DNA of 64,000 nt from a virus. Its lineage: Duplodnaviria; Caudoviricetes. Location: positions 2,041 to 66,040 of IMG/VR virus record IMGVR_UViG_3300023174_000162. One strand, written 5' to 3'. Numbering within the stretch: the stretch's first letter is position 1; each line of letters opens with the position of its first letter. The notes below the pieces were generated by a model. It was not told where the DNA came from. It made no database searches and saw nothing but the letters and a program-made list of their open reading frames with translations. This document shows positions 31,009 to 54,275 of this stretch, in pieces. Made by a program: the position numbers and the translations under genes.

Positions 31009-31094
31009 AATTTTCTCCTAGTTATTAATAAAGCTACTACATATAGATCAGTAGTTGAAGATGCTATAGCAAAAGTTCAACATGAGACCATTAA

Positions 31095-31400
31095 TTCGGA
31101 CCGACTGATTGGGTGATAAGGACAGTCGGTGAAAACCTCATCTAGAGCTTAAGCTGCTAGAGCGTAATCGCTATCGTTTGCGTTTACTTGTTTTGCTTGA
31201 TTTACGGTCATCGCCTACCGTGTTGCCTTCTCTACTATCTCACCCTGTCGAAACCTGGTCATCCCCATCAGAAGTACACAATCCCCGCTAGAGCCCTCAG
31301 AGGTTTCTTTCATCTAGGACAACTATGCACTTCTGGTGGAGATGGAGGGAATCGAACCCTCGTCCAGAATGCCTTCGCTTTGAAGGAATTACAACAATTC
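31095..31400 (-). ncRNA. ssrA: Circularly permuted (two-piece) tmRNA; outer boundaries approximate
   Basis: Acceptor piece ends GGTTCGATTCCCTCCATCTCCACCA (31334); 67-nt intervening segment; coding piece starts GGGGATGACCAGGTTTCGAC (31266); tag ANDSDYALAA* at 31181-31149. Confidence 0.92.
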
Positions 31401-31408
31401 TTTTTATC

Positions 31409-31510
31409 TTACTTATAAGTTGAACAGTAAAATAATACAATACAAACACCGACCATTAATGCTCCAATCAAACCTACAAAATATCCAGCAAAAAAACATG
31501 AAGCAGACAT
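31409..31510 (-). CDS. Small hydrophobic peptide (33 aa)
   Basis: MSASCFFAGYFVGLIGALMVGVCIVLFYCSTYK*, coupled to the upstream stop. Confidence 0.45.
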   Translation of the reverse strand: MSASCFFAGYFVGLIGALMVGVCIVLFYCSTYK

Positions 31511-41763: not shown

Positions 41764-41855
41764 TGGCAGAGAGTGTGGGATTCGAACCCACGGACCAATT
41801 TTTATCAGTCGACGGTTTAGCAAACCGTTGATTTAAGCCACTCATCCAACTCTCC
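41764..41855 (-). tRNA. tRNA-Ser(GCT)
   Basis: Cloverleaf with long variable arm, loop TTGCTAA, CCA encoded. Confidence 0.93.
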
Positions 41856-41856
41856 A

Positions 41857-42498
41857 CTATTCATTCATTAGATCATCAACGAAATTTAAAAGATATTGCT
41901 GATGAGTGTTATGATGCCAATGCTTTCTCATCCAAGTATAATTATCATACCAACTTTTCTGACTTTCAGGATGACATCCTATTAATCCAACTTTACCTTG
42001 TATGATAGCCATAGCATCACCATTTGGATATGTGGCTATAGTCTCATATTCACCATCTCCTGTAAATGCACATCCATCGTAGAAGAACATATTTTGGGAA
42101 TAACCATTCCATGATATAGGCATCGCTTTAGCATGAGGACGTCTAGTGCATGTGTTAGGTCTAGTTATGTATTGCTCGGCTTTGACAGAGTCAAGTATGT
42201 CAAAATAATCAGATCCCGCCCAATATGCTCCCATGCATATACCCAAGTAATGCCCACCGTTATTAACGAAGCTACGGATGCGTTCAACATGAGATCTAAG
42301 TAGATAATTCCAGCTATCGGCATCGCCAACACCACCAGGAAAAGCAACCATATCAACATCATCAAAAAAATCATCTTCTAACTCCTGTTTGGTAAAAATT
42401 TTAAAGTCATAGTGCGGTGTAAGAGCTTGCATTATACCATTCACCGACTGAATCGAGCACTTTGGCTGATGAACGAATAAAGCAATTTTACGACGCAT
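41857..42498 (-). CDS. Class I glutamine amidotransferase-like (BPL_N-like) protein
   Basis: FPGG, YLGICMGAY, GCHPE. Confidence 0.8.
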   Translation of the reverse strand: MRRKIALFVHQPKCSIQSVNGIMQALTPHYDFKIFTKQELEDDFFDDVDMVAFPGGVGDADSWNYLLRSHVERIRSFVNNGGHYLGICMGAYWAGSDYFDILDSVKAEQYITRPNTCTRRPHAKAMPISWNGYSQNMFFYDGCAFTGDGEYETIATYPNGDAMAIIQGKVGLIGCHPESQKSWYDNYTWMRKHWHHNTHQQYLLNFVDDLMNE

Positions 42499-43057
42499 AA
42501 TTACCAATTATCTCCTTAAATCCAACTGTTCCACCTTGCTCTTGTATCTTCTTGATTGCATCTTCAAACAAGATAGGTCTAAAGTCTGTTTGCTCTACAC
42601 ATACACAATAATATCGAGGATCAATTTCACCTGATTCATTTAGTACTCTATTACTATGAGTATGACCATGAATGTTAGTTCCAAATCGATATAGCGCGGA
42701 TGGATGAAGAGGTATATGAGAAAGAATCATACCATTCATTACATGATATCCACGGACATCTTTAAAGAAAGGAGTATATTCTTCTAGTTTAAAGATATCA
42801 TGATTACCTTTAATGAGAACTTTTTCACCGTTCAAAAGACCCAGTATCTTCAAAGCTTTACGATTAATGACTACATCACCAAGATGATATACCTTATCTT
42901 TAGGACGAACAGTATCATTCCAACGTCTCACCATCTCCTCATCCATATCAGCTGGATCATCCCATGGACGAAGCTTAGTGACACCATCATTCCTCATGAA
43001 CTTGCAAACTCCCGCATGACCAAAATGTGAATCACTTGTAAGAAAAACTGCTGGCAT
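42488..43057 (-). CDS. Metallophosphoesterase
   Basis: SDSHFGH, HLGD, GNHD, NIHGHTH. Confidence 0.9.
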   Translation of the reverse strand: MPAVFLTSDSHFGHAGVCKFMRNDGVTKLRPWDDPADMDEEMVRRWNDTVRPKDKVYHLGDVVINRKALKILGLLNGEKVLIKGNHDIFKLEEYTPFFKDVRGYHVMNGMILSHIPLHPSALYRFGTNIHGHTHSNRVLNESGEIDPRYYCVCVEQTDFRPILFEDAIKKIQEQGGTVGFKEIIGNYAS

Positions 43058-43245
43058 TACCATCCACCTTCGCTATGTTGCATTAGATAACTATATACGC
43101 TTTCATGATCTTTAATCCATTGACCTGCAGGAGTCATATCATTAAAAGCTTTATTTGGACTACTCCACCACGTATCAGCAAGATCTTTACCTACCAGAGC
43201 AATAACCAATGCTACAGATCTTTGCTTCATAATATGTTCATTCAT
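43057..43245 (-). CDS. Small protein resembling Xre/MbcA/ParS antitoxin C-terminal domain
   Basis: ADTWWSSPNKAFNDMTP motif. Confidence 0.55.
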   Translation of the reverse strand: MNEHIMKQRSVALVIALVGKDLADTWWSSPNKAFNDMTPAGQWIKDHESVYSYLMQHSEGGW

Positions 43246-43254
43246 AATAATCCT

Positions 43255-43346
43255 TGGTGGAAGCGGTGAGATTCGAACTCACGGACCCATTTCTGAGTCG
43301 ACAGTTTTCAAGACTGTTCCGATAAACCGGACTCTGGCACGCTTCC
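43255..43346 (-). tRNA. tRNA-Ser(TGA)
   Basis: Loop CTTGAAA, long variable arm, CCA. Confidence 0.93.
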
Positions 43347-43351
43347 ATGTT

Positions 43352-43609
43352 TTAGTCAAAAACACCTACAACATCTTCTTCTGTAAGGATATAGATTGGA
43401 ATATTATCTATAGTCGTAGATGTTGCTTTGTTCCAATTAATTAAAATCGTTTCACCAACTTTTACATCTACAACATCCGGCCCAATTGCTATAACTTTTG
43501 CTTTATCAACAGTTTCTATACCTTTAGCAATATAGATTCCAGATCCTGTAGTCGTCTCACTTTTCAATTTTACTGCTGCAAGCTTTTTACCAATCGGTTT
43601 AATTTTCAT
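43352..43609 (-). CDS. groES: Co-chaperonin GroES-like protein
   Basis: MKIKPIG, TTGSGIYI, VIAIGPDV.DVKVG, EEDVVGV. Confidence 0.85.
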   Translation of the reverse strand: MKIKPIGKKLAAVKLKSETTTGSGIYIAKGIETVDKAKVIAIGPDVVDVKVGETILINWNKATSTTIDNIPIYILTEEDVVGVFD

Positions 43610-43633
43610 TCTGAATCCTTATATATGTAAAAT

Positions 43634-43708
43634 TGGTCCGGCCGCCAGGAATCAAACCTGGATCGCAAGATTAGAAGTCATGTGTACTATTCATTGTACT
43701 ACGGCCAG
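43634..43708 (-). tRNA. tRNA-Arg(TCT), atypical
   Basis: Loop CTTCTAA, CCA; mismatch in anticodon stem, T-loop TTTGA. Confidence 0.75.
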
Positions 43709-43755
43709 ATTTATAATTATAAGTCAAATGCATTAAAAAGTACAACGTTTATTTG

Positions 43756-43763
43756 TATAAATA
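43756..43763 (+). promoter_or_regulatory. Late promoter TATAAATA driving the plus-strand cluster
   Basis: Exact match upstream of 43807. Confidence 0.7.
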
Positions 43764-43806
43764 CTGATAATAGCTATATGCTATTTATTATAAAAAGGTA
43801 AACATA

Positions 43807-44028
43807 ATGTTACACAACTATCAACCTGTATTTAATATCAATATGATAATAGAAAAGCAACAAACGTTCTTATGCGAATTTGTTGATCTAAAACGTAATG
43901 GTTGGTTACATTATTCAAAAGCTTTAAACAACATGACCGGCGATTTTTGGCAGCTATGGATGGATGAAGCTGATAAGCAAGTTAGTAATCTAGCTGAAAG
44001 CATGAAGCTGACAATTAGATCTAAGTAG
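43807..44028 (+). CDS. Hypothetical protein
   Basis: RBS AAGG, follows late promoter. Confidence 0.6.
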   Translation: MLHNYQPVFNINMIIEKQQTFLCEFVDLKRNGWLHYSKALNNMTGDFWQLWMDEADKQVSNLAESMKLTIRSK

Positions 44029-44140
44029 TACCGCAGTTTATGTATACATCATCTTGAGGATTCATCCTTATCAATTGTCATTGACTTGACGTCTTGTAGT
44101 GCAATATAATTTTTAAACATACTAGAGTGGGGAGTGGGGT

Positions 44141-44311
44141 ATGAAATTCCTGAGCATCATAATGCTCCCATTGCTATTTCTTGGTTGTGAGCAGTATTAT
44201 CGTTATCCATGCCAAGATCCAGCAAAATGGGAAACCGAAGAATGTAAAAAGCCAATCTGTGAAGTGAACAGAGATTGTCCTGAGCTTATTTTTAATAAGG
44301 AGAAAAAATGA
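44141..44311 (+). CDS. Small Cys-rich lipoprotein (56 aa)
   Basis: MKFLSIIMLPLLFLGC lipobox, then YRYPCQDPAKW..ECKKPICEVNRDCPE; missing from the ORF track. Confidence 0.75.
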   Translation: MKFLSIIMLPLLFLGCEQYYRYPCQDPAKWETEECKKPICEVNRDCPELIFNKEKK

Positions 44312-44667
44312 AAAACACAAAAACTAAAACAAGTAAACCTGGAGAAAGGTATACTGAACAAGAGCTAATGGTTAGACTAAAAGTTTTCATTGGAACATGT
44401 TTAGCATGCACACTTATTGGTATCGTATTTGTAGTTCTTTATTCACTAATATTTGTAGTTCAACCTCTAGATGCAATAAGTCCAATCGACGCAAAGTTCT
44501 TTGAGTTGATTATTCCTCTTGCTACATTCTTAACTGGTACATTATCAGGTATTATGTTAGCTGGAACTGGACGTGAAGCTGCAATGGCTGGAGCAGAAAT
44601 GCAACGAAATGCCATGGCAGTAGATGAACCTCAACCAGACCCAGAACCAGAAGAAACCCAAAAGTAA
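44308..44667 (+). CDS. Two-TM membrane protein
   Basis: Two hydrophobic helices; coupled to the lipoprotein gene. Confidence 0.75.
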   Translation: MKNTKTKTSKPGERYTEQELMVRLKVFIGTCLACTLIGIVFVVLYSLIFVVQPLDAISPIDAKFFELIIPLATFLTGTLSGIMLAGTGREAAMAGAEMQRNAMAVDEPQPDPEPEETQK

Positions 44668-44671
44668 AAAC

Positions 44672-44692
44672 AAGGGGGTCTAGAACCCCCTT
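44672..44692 (+). terminator. Hairpin, possible terminator
   Basis: AAGGGGGT-CTAGA-ACCCCCTT. Confidence 0.45.
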
Positions 44693-44702
44693 ATAAACTA
44701 TC

Positions 44703-45479
44703 ATGGATCCGTTAACACTCTTTGCACTTGCTAATGGCGCAGTAAAACTTGTAAAGGAAGGTTGTAAACTTTACAAGGATATTAAAAGTGCTGCGGGCGA
44801 CGTAACAGATGTATTAAAAGATCTTGATGATCAATTTCATAACAGGTTTAAAGATCGTGCACCAACTATTGCTGAGAAAAATCAGTACGTAGAAGAAAAA
44901 AATCGCGTCATTGAACTAAATAAGAAGAAGGGTGAGACAGCCAATATCTATACAGAGATTGGTCAACATCTAGGCGTATACTTTGATAACTATTATAAGT
45001 GCTTAGCAGTATTTGAAGAAGAAGAACGCCGTAGTAAAACTGAAGTATATCATGGTGAAGACAGCGTGGGTAAACGTGCACTACAACGTGTTCTACTTCA
45101 AAAGCAATTAAAATCAATGTGGTCAGAGTTACGTGAGATTATGGTATATCAAAGTCCTCCAGAATTAGGCGCACTTTGGACAGAAGTTGAAGAAATGATG
45201 AAAATAGTTGGTAAAGAACAAACCATAGCAATTGCTCAAGAAATGCAACGTGATAGAATACGCGCAAAACAGAATGCACGAAAAAGAAAAAAACTTAAAT
45301 ACAAAATTGCGTGTTGGAGTGTAGCTACTTTATCGATAATTTATCTAATTGCATTAGTCTGGAGCGTCGTTGAAATAAGAAAAGAAGTAAAACCGGAATT
45401 AGGAAAATGCCTAATTCCGAAAGGTGCTTGGGGCTATAAGCAATATAATAACTTAAAGTGGGTAGAGTGCGAGATTTAA
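44703..45479 (+). CDS. Hypothetical coiled-coil protein with C-terminal TM
   Basis: MDPLTLFALANGAV; 258 aa. Confidence 0.75.
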   Translation: MDPLTLFALANGAVKLVKEGCKLYKDIKSAAGDVTDVLKDLDDQFHNRFKDRAPTIAEKNQYVEEKNRVIELNKKKGETANIYTEIGQHLGVYFDNYYKCLAVFEEEERRSKTEVYHGEDSVGKRALQRVLLQKQLKSMWSELREIMVYQSPPELGALWTEVEEMMKIVGKEQTIAIAQEMQRDRIRAKQNARKRKKLKYKIACWSVATLSIIYLIALVWSVVEIRKEVKPELGKCLIPKGAWGYKQYNNLKWVECEI

Positions 45480-46141
45480 GTCCATAAACTTGAGAAGTGT
45501 TTTGCAAATAGATTGATACCTTCTTGCATTCTATCCCAGTGTTTTTGACGACCTTCCCAATCGCATTCACGAGTACCAGTCGATTTTAGCTCAAACAGCT
45601 GTTCATCTTTTTTCGTGATAGGATTCCAGTGTGTTTCACCGCTTGCAATTGATTCGCACTCTCCGCGTTCACCTGTCCAATATGGATCATCCCAATTATC
45701 TTTATTATACTCTTCAAATGCCCATATCATATGATCGAGAGCTTTATTCCACTCATCTTCTGCTTGCTTGAAAAGCACATCAGCATGATCGTGAAGAGGT
45801 CCATCGCCTTTTTCAGCCCAAAACTCATTACTAGATACAAGATCACTATATTCTTTACCAAGAAATTCACATGGAACTCCATGCTTATCTTCTTTTACTT
45901 TATGAAGAAGAGGAGCAATGATCTTAGCAAGAGTATGATCAGCTGACCACGCATCATAGTTATGAATAACTATTTTTTCTTTCCGCTCGCCTCTCATCTT
46001 CTCTAGCCAAAGAAAAGGTGCAGTAGGAATTAAGATTGCAATCTTATCACGCAAGTATTCTGAGACTCCTACATATTTCAGGAGTTCTACAAGTTGATAT
46101 GGTCCAACCCAGTTTTTATATGGTCCTAGATTAACTCGCAT
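45476..46141 (-). CDS. Conserved phage hypothetical protein
   Basis: YDAWSADHTLAKII.PLL, W..ALDHMIWAF; start MRVNLG. Confidence 0.75.
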   Translation of the reverse strand: MRVNLGPYKNWVGPYQLVELLKYVGVSEYLRDKIAILIPTAPFLWLEKMRGERKEKIVIHNYDAWSADHTLAKIIAPLLHKVKEDKHGVPCEFLGKEYSDLVSSNEFWAEKGDGPLHDHADVLFKQAEDEWNKALDHMIWAFEEYNKDNWDDPYWTGERGECESIASGETHWNPITKKDEQLFELKSTGTRECDWEGRQKHWDRMQEGINLFAKHFSSLWT

Positions 46142-46304
46142 CTTCTGTCTCTTTATTTTTCTTAGTTGAAGAATGTTTACTGCCGTCAATTTGAGCTTTA
46201 ATCATTGATTCTTTAAATACATTACGACGATCTTTATCCAAGATAGTAGTCATTGCACGTTTTGTTTGTTTTGAGATCTTAAAAGTTGAATCACGACGCT
46301 GCAT
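46131..46304 (-). CDS. Small basic protein (57 aa)
   Basis: MQRRDSTFKISKQTKRAMTT...; missing from the ORF track. Confidence 0.55.
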   Translation of the reverse strand: MQRRDSTFKISKQTKRAMTTILDKDRRNVFKESMIKAQIDGSKHSSTKKNKETEDAS

Positions 46305-46305
46305 A

Positions 46306-47178
46306 TTATACCTCTACATATTTAAGTTTAAAATTATCAGCACGATCTTCATAACCATCATAGCCACGAGGATTGCACACAACACGAGTAGTACCAATCA
46401 TATAGTCAAATTCTTCATGTGTATGACCATGAGTCCACAGTTTGATCTGACGATTATTCAAGATGAACTCATTCAGATCTGAACTATAAGCACCATTTGT
46501 TACCTTCTCATCCTTATATTTAGGATGAGTACTGAACTTAGATGGAGAGTGATGTCCAACTACAACAAATGGAGTAACAGAATTATGCTCTAAACATGTG
46601 CTTAGTTTCACAAGAAATTTCTTATGATCTTCTACAGAATCTTCTGGTGTGAACTTAGCTGGACGCTCTCTAAATACGATTTTACCTCCATCATCATACA
46701 CTTTAAATGACACCATATTATGCGAATTATTGACAAGCTGAAAGTCACTCATAAAACTAGCAATTGACTTCATAGTATATCTATCTTCGTCGTTCATATC
46801 AGTCCATAGAGAACCGCCAAAGAACATATGCCCATCAATCAACATTGACTCTTTATCAAGCAAAAAGAAGTTCTCTAGATCTTTAGTTGCATTGCTGATA
46901 TAATCAAATGAATACTTGAAGTCTCCATGATAGTGCTCATGATTACCCATCACCATAAGAACCTTTTGGAATTCTGCGCAGCAGTTCTTTAGGAAGTCGT
47001 AGTATCTACGTCCTCTAGCTTCTTGTGTAGTGTAATCTGCTAGATTAGGATTGAAGTACTCGAGTTCATAAGCAATGAGAATATCCCCACCTAGGATGAG
47101 GACATCTGCATTCTCTTCGTTTTTAAGTGTCAGATCACCGAACTCGAGGTGAAGATCTGAGCACACAGCTACTTTCAT
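46306..47178 (-). CDS. Metallophosphoesterase
   Basis: SDLHLE, GGDI, GNHE, HHSPS, HGHTH, NPRGY. Confidence 0.9.
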   Translation of the reverse strand: MKVAVCSDLHLEFGDLTLKNEENADVLILGGDILIAYELEYFNPNLADYTTQEARGRRYYDFLKNCCAEFQKVLMVMGNHEHYHGDFKYSFDYISNATKDLENFFLLDKESMLIDGHMFFGGSLWTDMNDEDRYTMKSIASFMSDFQLVNNSHNMVSFKVYDDGGKIVFRERPAKFTPEDSVEDHKKFLVKLSTCLEHNSVTPFVVVGHHSPSKFSTHPKYKDEKVTNGAYSSDLNEFILNNRQIKLWTHGHTHEEFDYMIGTTRVVCNPRGYDGYEDRADNFKLKYVEV

Positions 47179-47188
47179 TGTTATTCCT

Positions 47189-47326
47189 TTAATTAAACAC
47201 TCTTTTCTTTTTTAAACGATTAGGATCTTTCATACACCAAATACAACGCTTTGATGGCGTATCATAAAAATATAGCTTACAATCAGGATACGTGTCTCCA
47301 CAATTGACACATGTATAGAGCTTCAT
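47189..47326 (-). CDS. Small zinc-finger peptide (45 aa)
   Basis: MKLYTCVNCG...RCIWC; missing from the ORF track. Confidence 0.5.
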   Translation of the reverse strand: MKLYTCVNCGDTYPDCKLYFYDTPSKRCIWCMKDPNRLKKKRVFN

Positions 47327-47339
47327 CTCTGGACCAAGA

Positions 47340-47792
47340 TCATCGTCCTGCTTTTTTGTCTTTGTCATAGATGTTCTCAGTTACAAATACTTCAAACTTC
47401 TTATCATCTGCCCATGTCTTTACGTAATCATTGTCTTCATCACAGAGCTTGATGATATGCTCTTGTGTGATCTCATGAGTACTTATAACTGTTTCACCCA
47501 ACCATTTTTGTGAGAATTCTTTTGCTTCTTTACATACGACAGTATCTTCTGCATGTTCTGCGCATTTAGCTTTCACTACATAACGCATACGATAGGTAGA
47601 AGTGCATTCAACAAGATAGTATTTTTCCTCTTCTTGTTTCTCAACTTTACGCATAGTATAAGAGCCATTTTTATTATCAATGAACTCGATGTCGTCACCA
47701 ACATTCCAACCGGCTTCCATGAGGATCTCATCAGTAAGCGGAAGAATGGTATCATCACCATCTTGAATCAAATCAATAGTATATCTTTTCAT
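47340..47792 (-). CDS. Protein with N-terminal AbrB/MazE-like domain
   Basis: ILPLTDEILMEAGWNVGDDIEF motif. Confidence 0.65.
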   Translation of the reverse strand: MKRYTIDLIQDGDDTILPLTDEILMEAGWNVGDDIEFIDNKNGSYTMRKVEKQEEEKYYLVECTSTYRMRYVVKAKCAEHAEDTVVCKEAKEFSQKWLGETVISTHEITQEHIIKLCDEDNDYVKTWADDKKFEVFVTENIYDKDKKAGR

Positions 47793-48040
47793 CCTATCCT
47801 CATCTGCAATAACTGTTTAGCTTCACGTACGGACTTAGTCTTCATTCCATTGATGACGATGTTCTTGTCAGAATAAACCAATACATTACCACCATTAAAA
47901 CGAAGCAGATAGCAATCTTTGCCATTACTATCTGTAGCTTTCTCGCTAATACGATCAAAAGAGTCTACAAAGCCACCAAATTTCAGAGTGTCTTCGAGCT
48001 CTTCAGCCGCTAGCTTACGTATATATCCAATTGGCATCAT
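47789..48040 (-). CDS. Hypothetical protein
   Basis: Follows early promoter 48046-48075; possibly leaderless. Confidence 0.6.
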   Translation of the reverse strand: MMPIGYIRKLAAEELEDTLKFGGFVDSFDRISEKATDSNGKDCYLLRFNGGNVLVYSDKNIVINGMKTKSVREAKQLLQMRIG

Positions 48041-48078
48041 AATGTATTATACTCCATATAAAGAATTAAGTACACATT

Positions 48079-48507
48079 TTATTCGTAATCGTAGTCTTCC
48101 TCTTCGTACGAAGGATTCGTTTCGATCAGAACTCTACCGAACTGGATGATGCCCTCCCAATCAGGAGTTCCACGACCACCACCAGTTACAAAATCTGTTT
48201 GAAAATCTACAATCGCACCTAAACTTTCAATGTCATAAAATGAACGTGCGCGGATATCGCGGATATCTTCAACGCGAATGCATCCAATACTACCAGAATC
48301 CACAGAGTGTTTAGTTCTGATGTTCGATCGATACTCGCCATCACCGTATACGGTACCGTACGTAGCAAATCGACGACCATCTGCAAATTGAAATTCACCA
48401 TCTAAGCATTCATTGCCCTTGATGGTTAGAGAGCAAAATTCATCCCACTCTTCATCTGTCATAACGTAGCAGAGGTCACCAATGTAGTACTTTCCAGCTT
48501 GCATCAT
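48079..48507 (-). CDS. Conserved phage hypothetical protein
   Basis: YYIGDLCYV, YGDGEY, VDSGSIG. Confidence 0.75.
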   Translation of the reverse strand: MMQAGKYYIGDLCYVMTDEEWDEFCSLTIKGNECLDGEFQFADGRRFATYGTVYGDGEYRSNIRTKHSVDSGSIGCIRVEDIRDIRARSFYDIESLGAIVDFQTDFVTGGGRGTPDWEGIIQFGRVLIETNPSYEEEDYDYE

Positions 48508-48677
48508 ACTTTTTCTCCGTAATATTGTGCATCATTATCGTATGATGCAGCCGCATAGTTCATCATCTCAAACTCCGCAGAGAACTCAGCGACCATCTCG
48601 TCATGCTGAACTTCCGCTAGAGATTCGTAGTGATCATCAGCGATGAGCTGAAGAAGGCCGTTGAGTTCGTCTATCAT
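48504..48677 (-). CDS. Small acidic protein
   Basis: Start probably MIDELN; SYDNDAQYYG. Confidence 0.55.
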   Translation of the reverse strand: MIDELNGLLQLIADDHYESLAEVQHDEMVAEFSAEFEMMNYAAASYDNDAQYYGEKV

Positions 48678-48678
48678 A

Positions 48679-49044
48679 TTACACTCCAACGTTAGTAACT
48701 TTGGAAGGTTTGCGAGAAGCTTGACGTGCTTTCTTACCAACCGGTTTTGACATCAACTTTTGCAGACGCTCTTGAACTCGAGCGATCGCTTGTTCTTTAC
48801 GAGCTTCACGTTCGACTTTCTTTTGAGCACGAATTGCTTCGCGTTCTGCTTTCTTAGCTTCACGAGCTTTGATCTTTTCGGTACGAGCAGCTTCTTTATT
48901 TGCACGAGCACTCGATTTTTCGATCTTCGCATCGTTGCGAGCTTGTTTGAGTTGAGCTTGGAAGTACTGTACATTACCACGTGCAAAATTCAGAGCTTCT
49001 TTAGCTTGAGCAAGTTCTTGCTTCAGGGATTCGATCTTAGTCAT
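48679..49044 (-). CDS. Lys/Ala/Arg/Glu-rich coiled-coil early protein
   Basis: First gene after early promoter; RBS GGAG. Confidence 0.7.
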   Translation of the reverse strand: MTKIESLKQELAQAKEALNFARGNVQYFQAQLKQARNDAKIEKSSARANKEAARTEKIKAREAKKAEREAIRAQKKVEREARKEQAIARVQERLQKLMSKPVGKKARQASRKPSKVTNVGV

Positions 49045-49121
49045 ATAATTCTCCAAAAAATTAACATAATATAAAAGTTATCAACCGAATATTTTTGCTT
49101 TGTTATTCAATCGATAGAGTA

Positions 49122-49182
49122 ATTATACCCTAAGCGCAAAAGAATGTACACTACTTTTTTCAACTGTGTACGGAATGATACA
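49122..49182 (-). promoter_or_regulatory. Early promoter cassette with 18-bp box
   Basis: TATAAT, GTGTAC, box at 49165-49182. Confidence 0.8.
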
Positions 49183-49227
49183 CTTTTGTGGTTTTGATGG
49201 TTTATTACATTCTGGAAACAATTCCGT

Positions 49228-49325
49228 GTCCTACCAGGGCCTCCTGGGGACCTCCGGGCCGGCCGGATGATAGGATATTCATCCCCCAGATGGCAAAACA
49301 CCCCAGGACTTCTCCCAGGGTGTTA
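49228..49325. repeat. GC-rich intergenic element, copy 3
   Basis: CTACCAGGGCCTCCTGGGG...CCCCAGGA; aligns with copies 1 and 2. Confidence 0.65.
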
Positions 49326-49352
49326 CTTTTTGATAATATTTCCTACCGGAAA

Positions 49353-49805
49353 CTAGTTGCTTTCTTTGTATTCGTAGATTGGTTCATCTGGAACCGTATA
49401 CGGAAAGGTCACTGGAGTCCTAGATTCAGATGAGGTGTAATACGACTTATGCTTCTCACCAGTTTCTTTATCGGTATACCATTCCCAGAACACCTTACCA
49501 TCAATATTGTATACTTTACCATCACCGTCTTTAAAAACACTGAAGCATCGTTTGTTCTGCCACAATGGACTACTACTAACATCAGAAACATTTCCCCATT
49601 CATCATCTTCACCAGTAAGTGGAGTAATGGGTTTATAAGCTAATAGACGTTTAAGAATGGAGAGTGCATAACTAGCAGAGAATCCAGAATGTCCTTCATC
49701 AGCAAACTCTTTAACCATATGAAGTAGATGTTTGTTCATCGTATCCTGCATCTCATCATCACCTAATCGTTTCAATTCATTTTCTGCAAAACTAACTAAG
49801 CTCAA
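49353..49805 (-). CDS. Conserved phage hypothetical protein
   Basis: EGHSGFSA, PLTGEDDEW, QNKRC. Confidence 0.75.
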   Translation of the reverse strand: MSLVSFAENELKRLGDDEMQDTMNKHLLHMVKEFADEGHSGFSASYALSILKRLLAYKPITPLTGEDDEWGNVSDVSSSPLWQNKRCFSVFKDGDGKVYNIDGKVFWEWYTDKETGEKHKSYYTSSESRTPVTFPYTVPDEPIYEYKESN

Positions 49806-50158
49806 TTGTATTCTCCCTTATGATTTTTCAATGCGGGCTTACGACGTAGCATACGACCAATTTTGTATAACCATGTCCAATGCCACATATGATGAAAGCC
49901 AATAAACACTCTCAGATATGGAACAACGAAACCAATCGATATACTATCTGGTGCTAGATTGACTTCAGCACTAAATGAGAAACTTTCTAATGTCCAAATA
50001 CGAAATATCAACCAATGTAATGACCAGCCATTTGCATTCCACTCGTCACCTGGACGATACTCATATCGAGGAAAGAGCGGGCAAGCATCGTTGCACCATA
50101 ATTGATGAAGTGGATAGTGCTCCCACCAATATTTTTCTCTAACAGGACCTTCACTCAT
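49802..50158 (-). CDS. Hypothetical Trp-rich protein
   Basis: RBS GAGG, coupled ORF. Confidence 0.6.
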   Translation of the reverse strand: MSEGPVREKYWWEHYPLHQLWCNDACPLFPRYEYRPGDEWNANGWSLHWLIFRIWTLESFSFSAEVNLAPDSISIGFVVPYLRVFIGFHHMWHWTWLYKIGRMLRRKPALKNHKGEYN

Positions 50159-50166
50159 ATAGCACC

Positions 50167-50352
50167 TCAGTCAATTGCTTTTAAAAATCCAACGACTTCC
50201 AAATAATTTGTGCGAACCACAAGCATATCACCTGCTGCAGTAACAACTACACACTTATCTGATTCTTGATGCTCTAACACGTACAAGATCTGATCGCAAT
50301 TGATTGATACACTCTTACCACTATTATCTACTGTTGCTGTTAAAATTTTCAT
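50167..50352 (-). CDS. Hypothetical protein
   Basis: Coupled ORF. Confidence 0.55.
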   Translation of the reverse strand: MKILTATVDNSGKSVSINCDQILYVLEHQESDKCVVVTAAGDMLVVRTNYLEVVGFLKAID

Positions 50353-50573
50353 AATATTTTTCCTAACACTTTATCAAAGAGTTCATCAAGCTCGGATTGG
50401 TAATCATTTCCAATCCTACGTTTTTCATAGATAGTTCGAATAAATGCTTTAAATTCAGTATCTTCGAACTCATCTTCCACTATAGAATATCCTCGACCCT
50501 CTAGCTCATTAATCAGATCATCTGTGTCGAAGTCATCTAAGTCTACGTCTACATCTACTGTAATATATGTCAT
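50349..50573 (-). CDS. Hypothetical acidic protein
   Basis: VDVDLDDFDTDDLINELEGRG. Confidence 0.6.
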   Translation of the reverse strand: MTYITVDVDVDLDDFDTDDLINELEGRGYSIVEDEFEDTEFKAFIRTIYEKRRIGNDYQSELDELFDKVLGKIL

Positions 50574-50755
50574 GCTTCCACCTCAGGAACATCTTTCCAC
50601 TCTGACCATTCCAGATATGGATTAAATCGACCTACATTAACATTAGTATGACCTTCTATTTTTACAGTTGGATCATACTTAACACGATATTGAAGAGTTC
50701 TCTTTCCACTAATACCGACAAAATCTTTCTGCACTACCCATCTCAACTCAAACAT
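50570..50755 (-). CDS. Hypothetical protein
   Basis: ELRW..LQYR..WSEWKDVP. Confidence 0.6.
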   Translation of the reverse strand: MFELRWVVQKDFVGISGKRTLQYRVKYDPTVKIEGHTNVNVGRFNPYLEWSEWKDVPEVEA

Positions 50756-51035
50756 CACCAATTCTCCCTTGTTTGACGATCTCACGAGTTTTCATTCCAC
50801 GATTGACATACATTAATGCAGCTTCTTCTGTATCGAAATGCATAATGGTTTTATAGGGATGACCCATCGCTTCATGATGTTCTTTCACGGCTGGTTCCCA
50901 GAAAGTTCCTCTTTCAACTCCCATCATCTCAAATTGCACCTCATAATGTACTTCATTTTTGATGTTGGTTTCTTTGATGATTCTATAAGAACCGGTGTGT
51001 CGAGTGACATCGAAGGCTAAATCAAATTTATTCAT
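50748..51035 (-). CDS. Hypothetical protein
   Basis: ORF directly after the tRNA cluster. Confidence 0.55.
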   Translation of the reverse strand: MNKFDLAFDVTRHTGSYRIIKETNIKNEVHYEVQFEMMGVERGTFWEPAVKEHHEAMGHPYKTIMHFDTEEAALMYVNRGMKTREIVKQGRIGDV

Positions 51036-51053
51036 AGGCGTATCAATATAAAG

Positions 51054-51128
51054 TGGAGTACGGGACAGGAATCAAACCTGCATGGGACAGTTTTGCAGAC
51101 TGCCGCCTGATCACTCGGCCACCCGTAC
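51054..51128 (-). tRNA. tRNA-Cys(GCA)
   Basis: Loop CTGCAAA, U73, CCA. Confidence 0.88.
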
Positions 51129-51133
51129 GTAGG

Positions 51134-51209
51134 TGGAAGCGGGTGCTGGATTCGAACCAACGATCTTCAGTTTATGAGACTGATGGGATGACCACTTCCC
51201 CAACCCGCA
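51134..51209 (-). tRNA. tRNA-Met(CAT), initiator-like
   Basis: Loop CTCATAA; 1:72 mismatch, but lacks the three G-C anticodon-stem pairs. Confidence 0.8.
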
Positions 51210-51217
51210 ATAAAACA

Positions 51218-51294
51218 TGGTGCCCAGGGCGAGACTCGAACTCGCAAAATTCGGCTTCTAAGACCGACACGTATACCAATTCCATCACCTGGGC
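51218..51294 (-). tRNA. tRNA-Leu(TAG), short variable arm
   Basis: Loop CTTAGAA, CCA. Confidence 0.88.
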
Positions 51295-51301
51295 AAAACT
51301 T

Positions 51302-51376
51302 TGGTGGAAGTAGAGAGATTTGAACTCCCGACCAACTCCGTATGAAGGAGCTGCACTACCACTGTGCTATACTTCC
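51302..51376 (-). tRNA. tRNA(CAT): Ile2 or elongator Met
   Basis: Loop TTCATAC, CCA. Confidence 0.85.
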
Positions 51377-51377
51377 G

Positions 51378-51452
51378 TGGTACCCTGTCGTGGGAACGAT
51401 CCACGGACCCTCACCTTATCAAGATGATGCTCTACCACTGAGCTAACAGGGC
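51378..51452 (-). tRNA. tRNA-Ile(GAT)
   Basis: Loop TTGATAA, CCA; T-loop ATCGTTC. Confidence 0.85.
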
Positions 51453-51453
51453 A

Positions 51454-51699
51454 TTATTCAACTTGTTTTTTATCTACACACGTATCACCAACAAAAACAT
51501 AAACATCAGAATCGATTCTTAATTGCTCGAATACCTGATTGTTTACACAGATATAAGGATCCTTATGATTTTCCATGTAATAAAAAACACCATAACCAAT
51601 ACCTCCCAATACCATAAGGATAGGGATATACTTGAGATACTTAACGATCTCAGGCAATGCAGAAAGAATCTGCGGTAGATTTTTTAATAGCTCTTTCAT
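51454..51699 (-). CDS. Small membrane protein inside tRNA cluster
   Basis: Start MKELLK; one TM helix. Confidence 0.6.
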   Translation of the reverse strand: MKELLKNLPQILSALPEIVKYLKYIPILMVLGGIGYGVFYYMENHKDPYICVNNQVFEQLRIDSDVYVFVGDTCVDKKQVE

Positions 51700-51711
51700 A
51701 CTACTATATAT

Positions 51712-51787
51712 TGGTGCAGACTGATGGAATCGAACCACCTTCATCGGCTCTTCAGGCCGCTGCTATGACCACATCAGCTAAGTCTGC
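51712..51787 (-). tRNA. tRNA-Phe(GAA)
   Basis: Loop CTGAAGA, CCA. Confidence 0.88.
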
Positions 51788-51846
51788 AAGATGTTGACAA
51801 TTTATTTTACTCTACGCCGTCAACAAAGGCGAGTCCTCACACGCGA

Positions 51847-52233
51847 TTAAATACACCACTCCTTCAGTTTATCCATAGTTAGAGTCTTTCTAACTTCATA
51901 TGAAGGATGATACTTCTTTACCATCTCCAACACTCTAGGAAGAACTTTGCAGATGAATTCATAATGCTTATCATCTCTACGACTAGCTTCTACCTTGAGA
52001 TAAGGAGTACCAGTGATATATGCTCTTGCTAAGAACGTTGCTCTGTTCTCTCTACCTACTACAAATTTACGATGATCAGAAAGTGAACAGAGTTTACGTT
52101 GCACTTCATACAAACTCTTCGATTCATTTCTTTCTAACCAATCAATCTGCTTCTTTAACTTTGCTTCTTCAAAACGGATTACTTTTGCTTCTAACGTCAG
52201 GTGCTTCGATTTGATTTTTAATTCGATACTCAT
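51847..52233 (-). CDS. Conserved phage basic hypothetical protein with hairpin-sequestered RBS
   Basis: ELKIKSKHL..EAKVIRFEE, HRKFVVGRENRATFLARAY; SD AAGGAG at 52245-52240. Confidence 0.85.
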   Translation of the reverse strand: MSIELKIKSKHLTLEAKVIRFEEAKLKKQIDWLERNESKSLYEVQRKLCSLSDHRKFVVGRENRATFLARAYITGTPYLKVEASRRDDKHYEFICKVLPRVLEMVKKYHPSYEVRKTLTMDKLKEWCI

Positions 52234-52239
52234 ATTGTT

Positions 52240-52279
52240 CTCCTTGTTTAAAAATTAGACATACAATTTAAACAAGAAG
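52240..52279 (-). promoter_or_regulatory. SD-sequestering hairpin
   Basis: CTTCTTGTTTAAA pairs with TTTAAACAAGGAG (13 bp, one G-U). Confidence 0.8.
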
Positions 52280-52281
52280 TT

Positions 52282-52317
52282 TTATGGAGGTCGAATGATC
52301 TAGCCAATATACCTCAT
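52282..52317 (-). CDS. Leader peptide with in-frame amber: MRYIG(UAG)IIRPP*
   Basis: AAGGAG-7nt-ATG AGG TAT ATT GGC TAG ATC ATT CGA CCT CCA TAA. Confidence 0.7.
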
Positions 52318-52341
52318 TACTAGTCTCCTTTTCAAAGTTTA

Positions 52342-52416
52342 TGGTGACTCTAGTAGGAATTGAACCTACATTAAACATTTTAGAGATGCTCGCATTAACC
52401 ATTATGCTATAGAGTC
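52342..52416 (-). tRNA. Amber suppressor tRNA (anticodon CTA)
   Basis: Acceptor GACTCTA/TAGAGTC, anticodon arm AGCAT-CTCTAAA-ATGTT, T arm GTAGG-TTCAATT-CCTAC, ACCA. Confidence 0.88.
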
Positions 52417-52433
52417 ATAATTATATATCTGAA

Positions 52434-52507
52434 GGGGTGTCCAACGAGTATCGACCTCGTACCTACTCTTTCACAGAGAGTAATGCTTCCACTACACCAT
52501 GGACACC
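52434..52507 (-). tRNA. tRNA-His(GTG)
   Basis: Loop CTGTGAA, G-1 encoded, CCA not fully encoded. Confidence 0.85.
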
Positions 52508-52509
52508 AT

Positions 52510-52584
52510 TGGCAGGGATGCTAGGATTCGAACCTAGTCTAGTTGAGTCAAAGTCAACGGTGCTCGCCGATACACTACATCCCA
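52510..52584 (-). tRNA. tRNA-Gln(TTG)
   Basis: Loop CTTTGAC, CCA. Confidence 0.88.
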
Positions 52585-52591
52585 ATAAATC

Positions 52592-52667
52592 TGGTGGAGA
52601 TGACAGGACTCGAACCCGCTACCTACTGCTTGCAAAGCAGCCGCTCTCCCAGCTGAGCTACATCCCC
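52592..52667 (-). tRNA. tRNA-Ala(TGC)
   Basis: G3-U70, loop TTTGCAA, CCA. Confidence 0.95.
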
Positions 52668-52760
52668 ATATTGAAACACACTGCGGGAATCGAACCCATC
52701 GGCCGGAATATAGGCCTACAGCCACCCCTCGTACCCTTGGGATTCAATGTGTTTCAATAT
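52668..52760 (-). ncRNA. Stem-closed RNA cassette A with tRNA-like T arm
   Basis: TATTGAAACACA...TGTGTTTCAATA enclosing GGGTTCGATTCCC. Confidence 0.6.
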
Positions 52761-52834
52761 GGCCGGTCCTGAAGGAATCGAACCTCCACTTAGTGGTCCG
52801 TAGCCACTCGTAATATCCATTTTACTAAAGACCG
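52760..52834 (-). tRNA. tRNA-Arg(ACG)
   Basis: Loop CTACGGA, CCA. Confidence 0.88.
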
Positions 52835-53001
52835 ATAATGAATTATAGCCGGTGTAGACACATCAAGGCATCACCCTATCCCGCTACTCCGTTTACTAAG
52901 AAGGCTTTTCGCTACTCAATGATTGATGATCATCTTTCACTACTTTGTTTTTAAAGGCCTCTAGTTGTCCATCCCACTAGACTCTGCTCCTACTATAAAT
53001 G

Positions 53002-53094
53002 TGGTGGGTGTCCACGGAGTCGAACCGCGAATGTTTACCACGAGGGACCTGATTTACAGTCAGGTGATGCACACGCCTTAGCATCAAGACACCC
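53002..53094 (-). tRNA. tRNA-Tyr(GTA)
   Basis: Loop CTGTAAA, long variable arm, CCA. Confidence 0.88.
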
Positions 53095-53157
53095 ATATAG
53101 AAGCACACCAGCCTGGCCAGCTTTCGTATCGAATACATTAACGATGTGCTTTTATAT
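53095..53157 (-). ncRNA. Stem-closed RNA cassette B
   Basis: TATAAAAGCACA...TGTGCTTCTATA. Confidence 0.5.
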
Positions 53158-53233
53158 GGTAGGTGCGGTGAGATTCGAACTCACGACCAATAGATTAAAA
53201 GTCTACTGCTCTAACCATCTGAGCTACGCACCT
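53157..53233 (-). tRNA. tRNA-Lys(TTT)
   Basis: Loop CTTTTAA, CCA. Confidence 0.93.
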
Positions 53234-53348
53234 TCTGATTTTCTGCTTTTCGAAGAGCTTTATTACTCTTTCTATGTGTACCCGCTTTTCTAAATAACGC
53301 CATCTTCACGAACGGATTACGTGGAGAGGCGATGCGTTTTCGTTTCAT
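53211..53348 (-). CDS. 45-aa very basic peptide whose stop lies inside tRNA-Lys
   Basis: RBS AGGAG; MKRKRIASPRNPFVKMALFRKAGTHRKSNKALRKAENQKVRSSDG*; missing from the ORF track. Confidence 0.7.
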   Translation of the reverse strand: MKRKRIASPRNPFVKMALFRKAGTHRKSNKALRKAENQKVRSSDG

Positions 53349-53369
53349 ACTCATCTCCTATAAAAAATC

Positions 53370-53444
53370 TGGCGGTCTCAAGGGGTAACGATCCCCTTCT
53401 TCATGCGTGACAGGCATGTGTGCGTCCATGAACACTTTGAGACC
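53370..53444 (-). tRNA. tRNA-Asp(GTC)
   Basis: Loop CTGTCAC, GCCA; T-loop ATCGTTA. Confidence 0.85.
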
Positions 53445-53450
53445 AGAATT

Positions 53451-53526
53451 TGGCTGCCAAGGTAGGGATCGAACCTACGACCAATTGATTAACAGTCAAC
53501 TGCTACTACCACTGAGCTACTTGGCA
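53451..53526 (-). tRNA. tRNA-Asn(GTT)
   Basis: Loop CTGTTAA, GCCA. Confidence 0.9.
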
Positions 53527-53656
53527 ATATTAGTTTTGCAGTCTGCACTATTTGCTATGTTTCAACGGATTAGCCTGCAGGACTTCGTTTACCGTCTATA
53601 TTCATAGTTACTCAGGCATGATCAAGCCCATGGCTTACAAACTGCAAAATTAATAT
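53527..53656 (-). ncRNA. Putative ~130-nt structured RNA
   Basis: Closing stem ATATTAATTTTGCAGT / ACTGCAAAACTAATAT. Confidence 0.5.
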
Positions 53657-53874
53657 GCTTAGGCTACGTGTTTTCCAATCATCGCCCCTAAGCTGAGTTG
53701 TTACCCTGTCCGAACACTAATCGACGCCTTGTCACGTAGTGTCCACGCTGCTATGTTGTCTGAGAAACCGGAGACGCCACTTGCGTAGTGTCTATATCTC
53801 GCTAACGGTGCCATAGCCACCGGGACAGTTATCGTCGCCACACGCTACTTTCAGGAAAGTAGTAACCGGAAACC
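53657..53874 (-). ncRNA. Putative ~220-nt multi-hairpin RNA
   Basis: GC-rich; stems CTACTTT/AAAGTAG, CTGTCC/GGACAG, CGGTG/CACCG, GCTTAGG/CCTAAGC. Confidence 0.55.
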
Positions 53875-53947
53875 ATATTGAAACACACTACAAAACGCTG
53901 TCACGCTCAGAGTTCGTCCATTAGCGAAGCAATGTGCTTCAATATGG
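53873..53947 (-). ncRNA. Stem-closed RNA cassette C
   Basis: CCATATTGAAGCACA...TGTGTTTCAATATGG. Confidence 0.55.
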
Positions 53948-54048
53948 CAACAATGTTGACTACCCTTCTAGCCCACGGTCAAGTTCTGCTAGTCGCTCTA
54001 GGGTCACCAGTAGGTCCTGTTGCAACAGGTTACCGATCATTGTTTACC
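53945..54048 (-). ncRNA. Putative CCA-terminated non-tRNA RNA
   Basis: AACAATG/CATTGTT-GCCA with internal hairpins. Confidence 0.5.
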
Positions 54049-54203
54049 ATATTAAAACACACTAATGAATCAGTCTGACGCAGCCGTACGCTTGGCAAAT
54101 CGTTTCCAATTTGTTTCTCGCTTTTCTAGGTACTCTGTATGTTCAGAATTCCGCAGTCCTCAATATAATTGCTTATAAGGGCAACTAATGTGTTTTAATA
54201 TGG
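54047..54203 (-). ncRNA. Stem-closed RNA cassette D
   Basis: CCATATTAAAACACA...TGTGTTTTAATATGG. Confidence 0.55.
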
Positions 54204-54275
54204 TACACCGTAGGAGAATCGAACTCCTCTTACTGCCGTGAAAGGGCAATGTCCTAACCGATAGACGAACGGTGC
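54201..54275 (-). tRNA. tRNA-Glu(TTC)
   Basis: Loop CTTTCAC, CCA. Confidence 0.92.

Follow-up and report, generated by a model that had tools for sequence, protein, structure and literature searches.

The DNA analysed here is a stretch of 64,000 nucleotides (nt), called the window throughout, from the virus record IMGVR_UViG_3300023174_000162 of IMG/VR (Caudoviricetes). On its minus strand lie, in order, a gene for a tRNA with the anticodon CUA, a short leader open reading frame (ORF) with its own Shine–Dalgarno (SD) sequence and an internal TAG, an RNA hairpin, and a gene for a basic protein of 128 amino acids (aa), referred to below as the gated gene (Table 1). The arrangement, together with its conservation in relatives, makes it likely that the suppressor tRNA encoded by the phage serves here as the input to a switch of translation. 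As expected of an amber suppressor, this tRNA folds into a cloverleaf with a 7-nt anticodon loop, CUCUAAA. A true pyrrolysine tRNA was considered and rejected, 'tRNA-Pyl' being merely the name that ARAGORN gives to CUA. Its closest relative among the other tRNAs of the window is that for Phe, at 69% identity, which is not informative about charging or ancestry. The leader reads ATG AGG TAT ATT GGC TAG ATC ATT CGA CCT CCA TAA and has 11 residues once read through. The hairpin begins 2 nt past the leader TAA, and its 3' arm ends with the SD of the gated gene, AAGGAG (52245-52240). The sequence-only reading had described the tRNA, leader, hairpin, SD and gene, and all its coordinates proved right to the base against the sequence, ARAGORN and RNAfold.

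Table 1. Features of the locus and its border (window positions; nt, nucleotides; ORF, open reading frame; SD, Shine–Dalgarno sequence)
Feature	Position	Strand	Basis and details
tRNA, anticodon CUA (amber suppressor), encoded CCA end	52342..52416	-	ARAGORN, anticodon cta at position 34
Leader SD, AAGGAG	52325..52330	-	Sequence; 11 nt past the tRNA 3' end
Leader ORF, MRYIG-UAG-IIRPP-UAA	52282..52317	-	ATG 52317-52315, TAG 52302-52300, Pro-Pro 52290-52285, TAA 52284-52282
13-bp hairpin	52240..52279	-	RNAfold; 5' arm 52279-52267, loop 52266-52253 (14 nt), 3' arm 52252-52240
Gated gene (basic protein of 128 aa; a helical hairpin and a small helical domain)	51847..52233	-	ORF; AlphaFold2
tRNA-Phe(GAA)	51712..51787	-	ARAGORN; 60 nt past the stop of the gated gene; bounds the unit within the tRNA array; context only

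In the RNAfold centroid structure, the 13-bp stem is the only helix, and the segment from the Pro-Pro codons to the ATG of the gated gene folds at -12.5 kcal/mol. The minimum free energy (MFE) structure of the 117-nt leader RNA additionally pairs GGAG of the leader SD with CCUCC of the Pro-Pro codons (window 52285-52328, minus strand). This helix is weak, is not in the centroid and is impossible in those relatives that have CCA CCN.

A tblastn search with the 128-aa protein against 50,697 phage records returned three matches, in Synechococcus phage BUCT-ZZ01 (49% identity), phage DSS3_MAL1 (41%) and Phage NCTB (36%). In BUCT-ZZ01 and DSS3_MAL1, a tRNA(CUA) lies directly upstream of the gene, the leaders are MGGDAS-TAG-INLKPP-stop and MKS-TAG-IRPPP-stop, respectively, and a stem after the leader pairs with the SD region of the gene. 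The carriers include phages of cyanobacteria and of alphaproteobacteria. IMG/VR was scanned with the protein and with its alignment, and these two scans, which both used the N-terminal word MSIELKI(K), retrieved the same 67 loci; homologues in the first scan are 31–61% identical to the window protein. A third scan, with an alignment of ten divergent family members, retrieved 80 loci, of which 41 were absent from the first set. The total of 151 loci comprises the window, the three phage records and 147 IMG/VR loci, and reduces to 80 distinct upstream regions when the last 130 nt are compared (at least 140 nt being available).

The sequence-only reading had staked itself on conservation of the leader among homologues. 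This comparison was made, and the leader is kept in 77 of the 80 distinct upstream regions, each having an SD ahead of its start codon, an internal signal, CCN-CCN in frame, and a hairpin. The signal is TAG in 71 leaders, TGA in two and TGAA followed by the +1 frame in four, while TAA takes its place in none of the 80 regions. A strict TAG pattern was found in 67 regions, compared with a mean of 0.41 (maximum 3) in 100 shuffles. Between one and ten codons precede the signal, except in two leaders with 49 and 61, and the spacing from signal to Pro-Pro is 1–17 codons, or 79 and 81 in two leaders, in frame in every case; the internal stop lies 2–6 codons upstream of Pro-Pro in 71 of the 77. There are 43 distinct post-signal peptides. 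The Pro-Pro codons themselves occur as 14 synonymous pairs with all four bases at both third positions, CCA CCN being the commonest. The base next to the signal triplet is A in 56 leaders, G in 16, C in five and T in none; a purine after UAG favours suppression.

Three regions fall outside the 77. L066 reads MT-[TAGA]-CRSPP once a four-base step is made, L141/L060 has a TAG leader and a CUA tRNA with a leader that ends in YIRDGPS-stop without Pro-Pro, and L065 has neither leader nor tRNA. The end of the L141/L060 leader carries, where the others have Pro-Pro, an R-x-G-P motif resembling that of SecM. IMG/VR was also scanned blind to the gene, with the pattern SD-ATG..TAG ATT CGN CCN CCN TAA. 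This gave 17 stretches, of which 12 fall on contigs that the set had included before (judged by contig name alone). Of the five stretches on new contigs, three have a tRNA(CUA), a hairpin and a gene of the family; the other two are one sequence, in which a TAG within an ORF coincides with the pattern out of frame.

The leader stop co-varies with the anticodon of the neighbouring tRNA. In 69 relatives, the median distance from the 3' end of the tRNA to the leader start codon is 23 nt. ARAGORN detected a CUA tRNA upstream on the same strand for 61 of the 71 TAG leaders and an odd loop containing CUA for five, and a CUA-bearing tRNA was recognised by eye for three more (L145, L063 and L216). Both TGA leaders (L147 and L218) have a UCA tRNA, 153 and 108 nt before the gene, and no TAG leader has one. 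Loci L143 (TAG with CUA; tRNA at 1285-1358) and L147 (TGA with UCA) encode gated proteins that are 98% identical and have similar hairpin regions. Their tRNAs and leaders differ, and the tRNAs are not simple anticodon mutants of one another; the pair reads as a natural joint swap of tRNA and stop.

Five leaders reach RGPP, RAPP or RSPP only through a four-base step, at TGAA in L004 (Phage NCTB, LT598654), L068, L069 and L070 and at TAGA in L066, all within 110 nt upstream of the gene; shuffling predicts 0.14 TGAA cases in the 80 loci. Three of the four TGAA leaders adjoin a tRNA-like gene with the loop CUUUCAA(A/U), which ARAGORN leaves untyped or calls Glu at a relaxed threshold. At L066, whose leader has TAGA, a tRNA-like gene lies 349 nt upstream; its loop is UUCUAAAC, and ARAGORN does not type it. 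The tRNA-like genes with these loops could be four-base decoders of natural origin. Some of the CUA tRNAs (L037, L045, L063, L145, L192 and L219) form a sub-class with the non-standard anticodon loops CCCCUAAU, GCCCUAAC and CCUCUAAC, which ARAGORN reports as 'ct' or 'ccta'; the Pro-Pro of their leaders stays in the triplet frame.

These pairings bear on what the leader would sense. The sequence-only reading had named either a suppressor or low activity of release factor 1 (RF1) as the input. Were release-factor activity sensed (RF1 in the case of UAG), near-cognate host tRNAs would read through the stop and the phage tRNA would be present for another reason. Kinetic competition at the stop would indeed let any drop in RF1 raise the output, and the TAG leaders of L168 and L012/L204 have no suppressor tRNA in the DNA examined. 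However, UCA tRNAs stand at both TGA leaders and at no TAG leader, tRNA and stop change jointly between L143 and L147 although the gated proteins are nearly the same, the four-base leaders could not be read through a shortage of release factor alone, and the tRNA typically ends just ahead of the leader start. The tRNA as input is supported; sensing of RF1 alone is less likely, since the internal stop changes with the neighbouring anticodon (TAG with CUA, TGA with UCA, and the four-base cases), and we regard it as unlikely.

In 46 of the 77 leaders, R, K or H immediately precedes Pro-Pro, and 44 of these 46 then stop at once. R-x-P-P is present in 21 leaders (RGPP in eight, RSPP in six, RDPP and RAPP in three each, REPP in one). 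A stop directly follows Pro-Pro in 58 leaders, among them that of the window, whose motif is I-R-P-P-stop and not R-x-P-P. The remaining 19 run on past Pro-Pro and consist of 14 with R-x-P-P, three with IGPP and two with IRPP-P; the stop overlaps the ATG of the gene in three of these run-on leaders and the frame is open into the gene in two. RAPP and RGPP are described as robust arrest motifs and RSPP and RDPP as partly permissive (PMC12992588), RAP in the P site prevents peptide-bond formation with the Pro-tRNA that occupies the A site (PMC10951233), and poly-proline C-termini lower the efficiency of termination, RF1 being affected by the base that follows UAG (PMC6412442). The pause at Pro-Pro-stop proposed in the sequence-only reading describes one of two designs. 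The other is seen in the 19 leaders without a stop after Pro-Pro, 14 of them with R-x-P-P, a motif class published for arrest during elongation.

The SD of the gated gene is placed to be hidden across the relatives. At least six of the 12 bases in the SD window pair with bases no more than 28 nt from the first Pro codon at 69 of 77 loci, compared with 29.4 expected when the spacer is shuffled and the SD retained; an A/G-rich SD finds a partner in shuffled spacers at 29 of the 77, so this count alone is a modest signal. The MFE z has a median of -3.25 and is below -2 at 60 of the 77 loci. Counted from the first Pro codon, the partner of the SD starts after 0–12 nt (median 8), which puts it at the leader stop or immediately behind it and bears out the geometry first proposed from the window, with the UAG short of the hairpin and Pro-Pro beside its 5' arm. 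The distance from Pro-Pro to the ATG is 51–71 nt at all loci but one. The hairpin arms co-vary: their sequences differ widely between loci, the mean duplex energy of an arm is -13.8 kcal/mol with its own partner and -7.85 kcal/mol with foreign arms, and own arms pair better than the foreign mean at 74 of 77 loci. RNAalifold gave no consensus structure on a MAFFT alignment of 34 leaders because that alignment is not in structural register, and the comparison rests instead on the folds of individual loci and on the duplex test of own versus foreign arms.

The proline codons could also have been kept as RNA. The mini-ORF would then truly end at TAG, CCNCC would be an RNA element (anti-SD-like or part of a stem), and the hairpin would be opened, for example, by processing of the tRNA precursor or by a late transcript. 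CCUCC is an anti-SD sequence, the Pro codons lie within the stem in L011, L059 and L003, and the window MFE pairs them with the leader GGAG. Yet the third positions vary freely across the 14 codon pairs, which fits selection on protein and not on RNA. CCN-CCN is moreover in frame with the stop at spacings of 1–17 and 79–81 codons, the 5' arm in most loci begins beyond the Pro-Pro codons (7–12 nt past the first Pro codon), 46 of the 77 leaders have a basic residue before Pro-Pro, and leaders with R-x-P-P tend to lack a stop after it. We consider an RNA element very unlikely. Selection evidently maintains the frame, Pro-Pro with its preceding basic residue, and the hairpin position, which indicates that the leader is read past its internal stop often enough for these to matter.

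The switch could work as follows. The tRNA, leader and gene lie in one tRNA array and probably share one precursor RNA. In the OFF state, a ribosome recruited by the strong leader SD would meet UAG at codon 6 and, where the release factor wins, terminate about 20 nt before the hairpin; the hairpin would remain closed and the SD of the 128-aa gene hidden. In the ON state, the charged tRNA(CUA) would win, and the ribosome would translate five more codons and pause on Arg-Pro-Pro-UAA, where its footprint would cover the 5' arm, freeing the SD for translation of the gene. In the R-x-P-P version, it would be a ribosome held with prolyl-tRNA in the A site that covers the 5' arm and frees the SD. The ribosome footprint extends about 12–13 nt beyond the A-site codon, so a ribosome terminating at UAG would miss the 5' arm and one held at Pro-Pro would cover it. 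Co-transcription, pause and unmasking of the SD are what we infer from this layout, and the 128-aa gene is probably translated only when tRNA(CUA) overrides the leader stop.

Several points weigh against this interpretation. The counts are not independent, because the loci are related and were found via the gated gene, the first two scans being keyed on MSIELKI(K); the 43 distinct post-stop peptides are a better guide to the strength of the evidence than the 77 leaders. The TAG leaders of L168 and L012/L204 have no suppressor tRNA in the flanking DNA examined, and Phage NCTB has a TGAA leader with no tRNA within 2.5 kb. Four-base reading is suggested by the leader frames, and the nearby tRNA-like loops are not typable by ARAGORN. 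The leaders usually have 7–20 residues, fewer than characterised arrest peptides, and x-R-P-P-stop may not hold the ribosome for long enough. Contigs of one metatranscriptome and three DNA runs overlap the tRNAs and not the leader or gene, and are silent on expression either way. The modest signal in SD pairing noted above belongs here too, as do the figures for the window taken alone. In the window, an ATG followed in frame within 12 codons by TAG and within a further ten by CCN-CCN occurs once in 64 kb on both strands, as the finding itself; shuffled windows hold 2.8 such patterns, or 0.13 if a stop is required after Pro-Pro, which for the leader pattern by itself amounts to a probability of about 1 in 8 per window. 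The 117-nt leader RNA is not unusually stable either, with a z of -1.15 against shuffles.

With 0.13 leaders per shuffled window and a fold z of -1.15, the window by itself is a weak case, suggestive only, and leaves room for coincidence, with the stretch between tRNA and gene containing the short ORF, the TAG and the AT-rich hairpin by accident. It is the comparison with relatives that settles the matter: 77 of 80 regions keep the design where fewer than one is expected, and chance is refuted to the point that we give it next to no weight.

The same TAG would have another meaning if the phage read it as sense. Phages that use code 15, in which TAG is read as Gln, reportedly carry suppressor tRNAs and have TAG inside many, mostly late, genes. 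Under a partial code 15, TAG would simply be translated once infection is late, and the leader would be a conventional arrest peptide of the Pro-Pro or RAPP type that responds, for instance, to elongation factor P (EF-P), to prolyl-tRNA or to some small molecule. Late-gene recoding in phages that carry suppressor tRNAs has been reported (bioRxiv 10.1101/2021.08.26.457843; PMC9523058), and recoded genes could lie outside the window, which is about 40% of the genome. In the window itself, the 68 long ORFs end in TAA (51), TGA (12) and TAG (five), and standard-code ORFs of at least 80 aa already span 51,084 of 64,000 bases, compared with 54,834 under TAG readthrough and 53,499 under TGA readthrough. 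The window uses the standard genetic code and is not recoded for TAG, since TAG readthrough adds essentially no more coding sequence than TGA readthrough. No other window gene with a strong SD and an early TAG was convincing, and the leader is the sole in-frame TAG target seen in the window. A sense-like TAG, furthermore, need not persist at one spot in 71 leaders, nor swap to TGA along with the tRNA. We find this explanation quite unlikely. What the locus shares with code 15 phages is a tRNA(CUA) in a standard-code host; here no window gene is recoded.

The gated protein is confidently predicted to be a helical hairpin and belongs to no named family. AlphaFold2, run with 32 homologues, gave a model with a predicted local distance difference test (pLDDT) score of 95.9, in which two long antiparallel helices (residues 3-36 and 41-74) precede a small helical region at the C-terminus. 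Residues 1–8, MSIELKIK, do not vary in the alignment, which was gathered through this N-terminal motif, divergent members varying there; a further conserved block is HR...VRNE.RAT.LARA. A profile search retrieved 3221 cluster representatives at E <= 0.001 among 1.84 billion. Library searches gave no match in Pfam, NCBIfam or PADLOC and a best E of 0.55 in PHROGs. The best E in a profile search of the PDB was 0.31, and Foldseek against the PDB returned nothing at E <= 0.001. A wide fold search with VIA found generic helical hairpins only, with a best Z of 9.3, under the level that the tool treats as meaningful for helical folds. BFVD contained uncharacterised relatives only, and ESM Atlas gave no usable match. 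Cellular contigs were scanned with the single pattern MSIELKIK, and one match was detected, on a 1.8-kb contig of a metagenome-assembled genome; absence from cells is not implied. A role tied to one release factor is unlikely because a single family serves amber, opal and four-base switches. Tentatively, the gated protein might instead act on a consequence or the level of stop-codon override in general; the suggestion in the sequence-only reading that it acts on translation is speculative.

The locus resembles several known systems. RAPP-like and SecM-type arrest leaders (ApdA, ApdP and ApcA; SecM with R-A-G-P), found upstream of sec or yidC, are likewise short same-strand ORFs directly upstream of the regulated gene. 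They share an SD-hiding stem within reach of the stalled ribosome, where the stall would melt the stem, and their R-x-P-P or Pro-Pro motif recurs in the family, 21 of the 77 leaders here being R-[AGSDE]-P-P; the window itself has I-R-P-P-stop and not RAPP. However, those leaders are much longer, are secretory or membrane peptides, and have their arrest relieved by Sec or YidC pulling on the chain, whereas the leaders here have about 7–20 residues without a targeting signal, and the gated protein is all-helical and soluble-looking, with no match in Pfam or NCBIfam. The regulated step also differs, being here the reaching of the motif at all, which would be decided at the internal stop by the tRNA next door. 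In ErmCL/ermC and TnaC, a leader-peptide stall alters the pairing or access of the downstream mRNA in response to a macrolide or tryptophan, TnaC stalling at termination with peptidyl-tRNA(Pro). The leader stall is shared, but the input here would be stop-codon override and not a small molecule. The gene for RF2, prfB, is autoregulated: its coding sequence contains an in-frame UGA that is passed by a +1 frameshift and that responds to the gene's own product. As in prfB, termination competing with alternative decoding at a stop would set expression, and the four-base leaders also shift frame at the stop; in contrast to prfB, here a leader apart from the gene contains the stop, and a dedicated tRNA is what competes with termination.

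The closest precedent is synthetic. In engineered switches, a TAG in a leader peptide makes downstream expression dependent on tRNA(CUA) (PMC6412442). The logic is the same, but these switches act on transcription termination (tna or trp leaders) and rely on an unnatural amino acid and its orthogonal synthetase, whereas the present locus is natural and translational, with the tRNA in cis. No description of a natural leader stop read by a cis-encoded tRNA was found in a literature search, many PMC articles and supplementary tables being beyond its reach, and a listing-level search of the literature on BUCT-ZZ01, DSS3_MAL1 and Phage NCTB found no mention of the design. Stalling leaders and SD-hiding stems are both established elements, while the input, a leader stop codon read by a cis-encoded tRNA, appears to be new.

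If the interpretation as a tRNA-driven switch is correct, the locus is a case of natural gene control by stop-codon override through a cis-encoded tRNA. Many standard-code phages hold a suppressor tRNA without a known target, and the design supplies a natural, conserved one. It would also be a compact suppression reporter, independent of the host because it occurs in phages of cyanobacteria and alphaproteobacteria. The relatives provide a set of minimal natural Pro-Pro and R-x-P-P stall leaders and may supply natural four-base decoders as well, and a very large uncharacterised family of phage proteins (the 3221 cluster representatives) is singled out as tied to decoding. A bolder and rather doubtful extension is that tRNA, leader and protein form a portable circuit that measures and sets stop override, with the leader as meter and the protein as actuator (a termination antagonist, a rescue factor or a tRNA brake) in a feedback loop, and that natural four-base tRNAs (UGAA and UAGA) are in routine regulatory use in phages.

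In some relatives, the leader is combined with longer reading frames. L204:1192-1446 (= L012) and L188:1183-1446 have a conserved ORF of 81–83 codons between the TAG, at codon 3 or 4, and Pro-Pro-stop, and a nested whole small protein may here also depend on readthrough. In L033:2736-2942 and L216:1281-1451, TAG closes an ORF of 61 or 49 codons, behind which KVFKPP-stop or KAREPP-stop continues the frame; what we call the leader appears in these two to be a readthrough extension of a real gene. The ORFs nested in or preceding the leaders of L012/L204, L188, L033 and L216 gave no family match. In L167 and L171, the leader MFKNFFR-TAG-VSRSPPKF... has no stop before the ATG of the gated gene and is in frame with it, and readthrough would yield an N-terminally extended fusion protein. 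No conserved third gene accompanies the module; the downstream genes vary by locus and include HNH, NUDIX, ferritin-like, methyltransferase and DUF7788 genes.

The window belongs to a 66-kb IMG/VR record, about 40% of a genome by completeness estimate, and is a fragment of a T4-like lake phage with matches to baseplate-wedge and tail PHROGs. The full stretch is contained in one sequencing run only, a lake-water metagenome that is probably its source sample. No PTH2 gene (PF01981) was detected in the 66-kb record. Megablast of the region against phage records gave no match, and a scan for promoters and terminators remained at chance level. ARAGORN detected 19 tRNA genes and one transfer-messenger RNA (tmRNA) on the minus strand. 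The tRNA genes form an array at 41764-54275 (minus strand) with small ORFs in between, and none in the 64-kb window is for Gly, Pro, Thr, Trp or Val. The tmRNA lies at 31058-31426 (minus strand) and has the tag peptide ANDSDYALAA. tmRNA genes are also found about 1 kb or less from the module in L002 (BUCT-ZZ01), L013 and L068; three of 80 loci is no more than tRNA arrays would give. Every array tRNA sequence examined ends in an encoded CCA or near-CCA.

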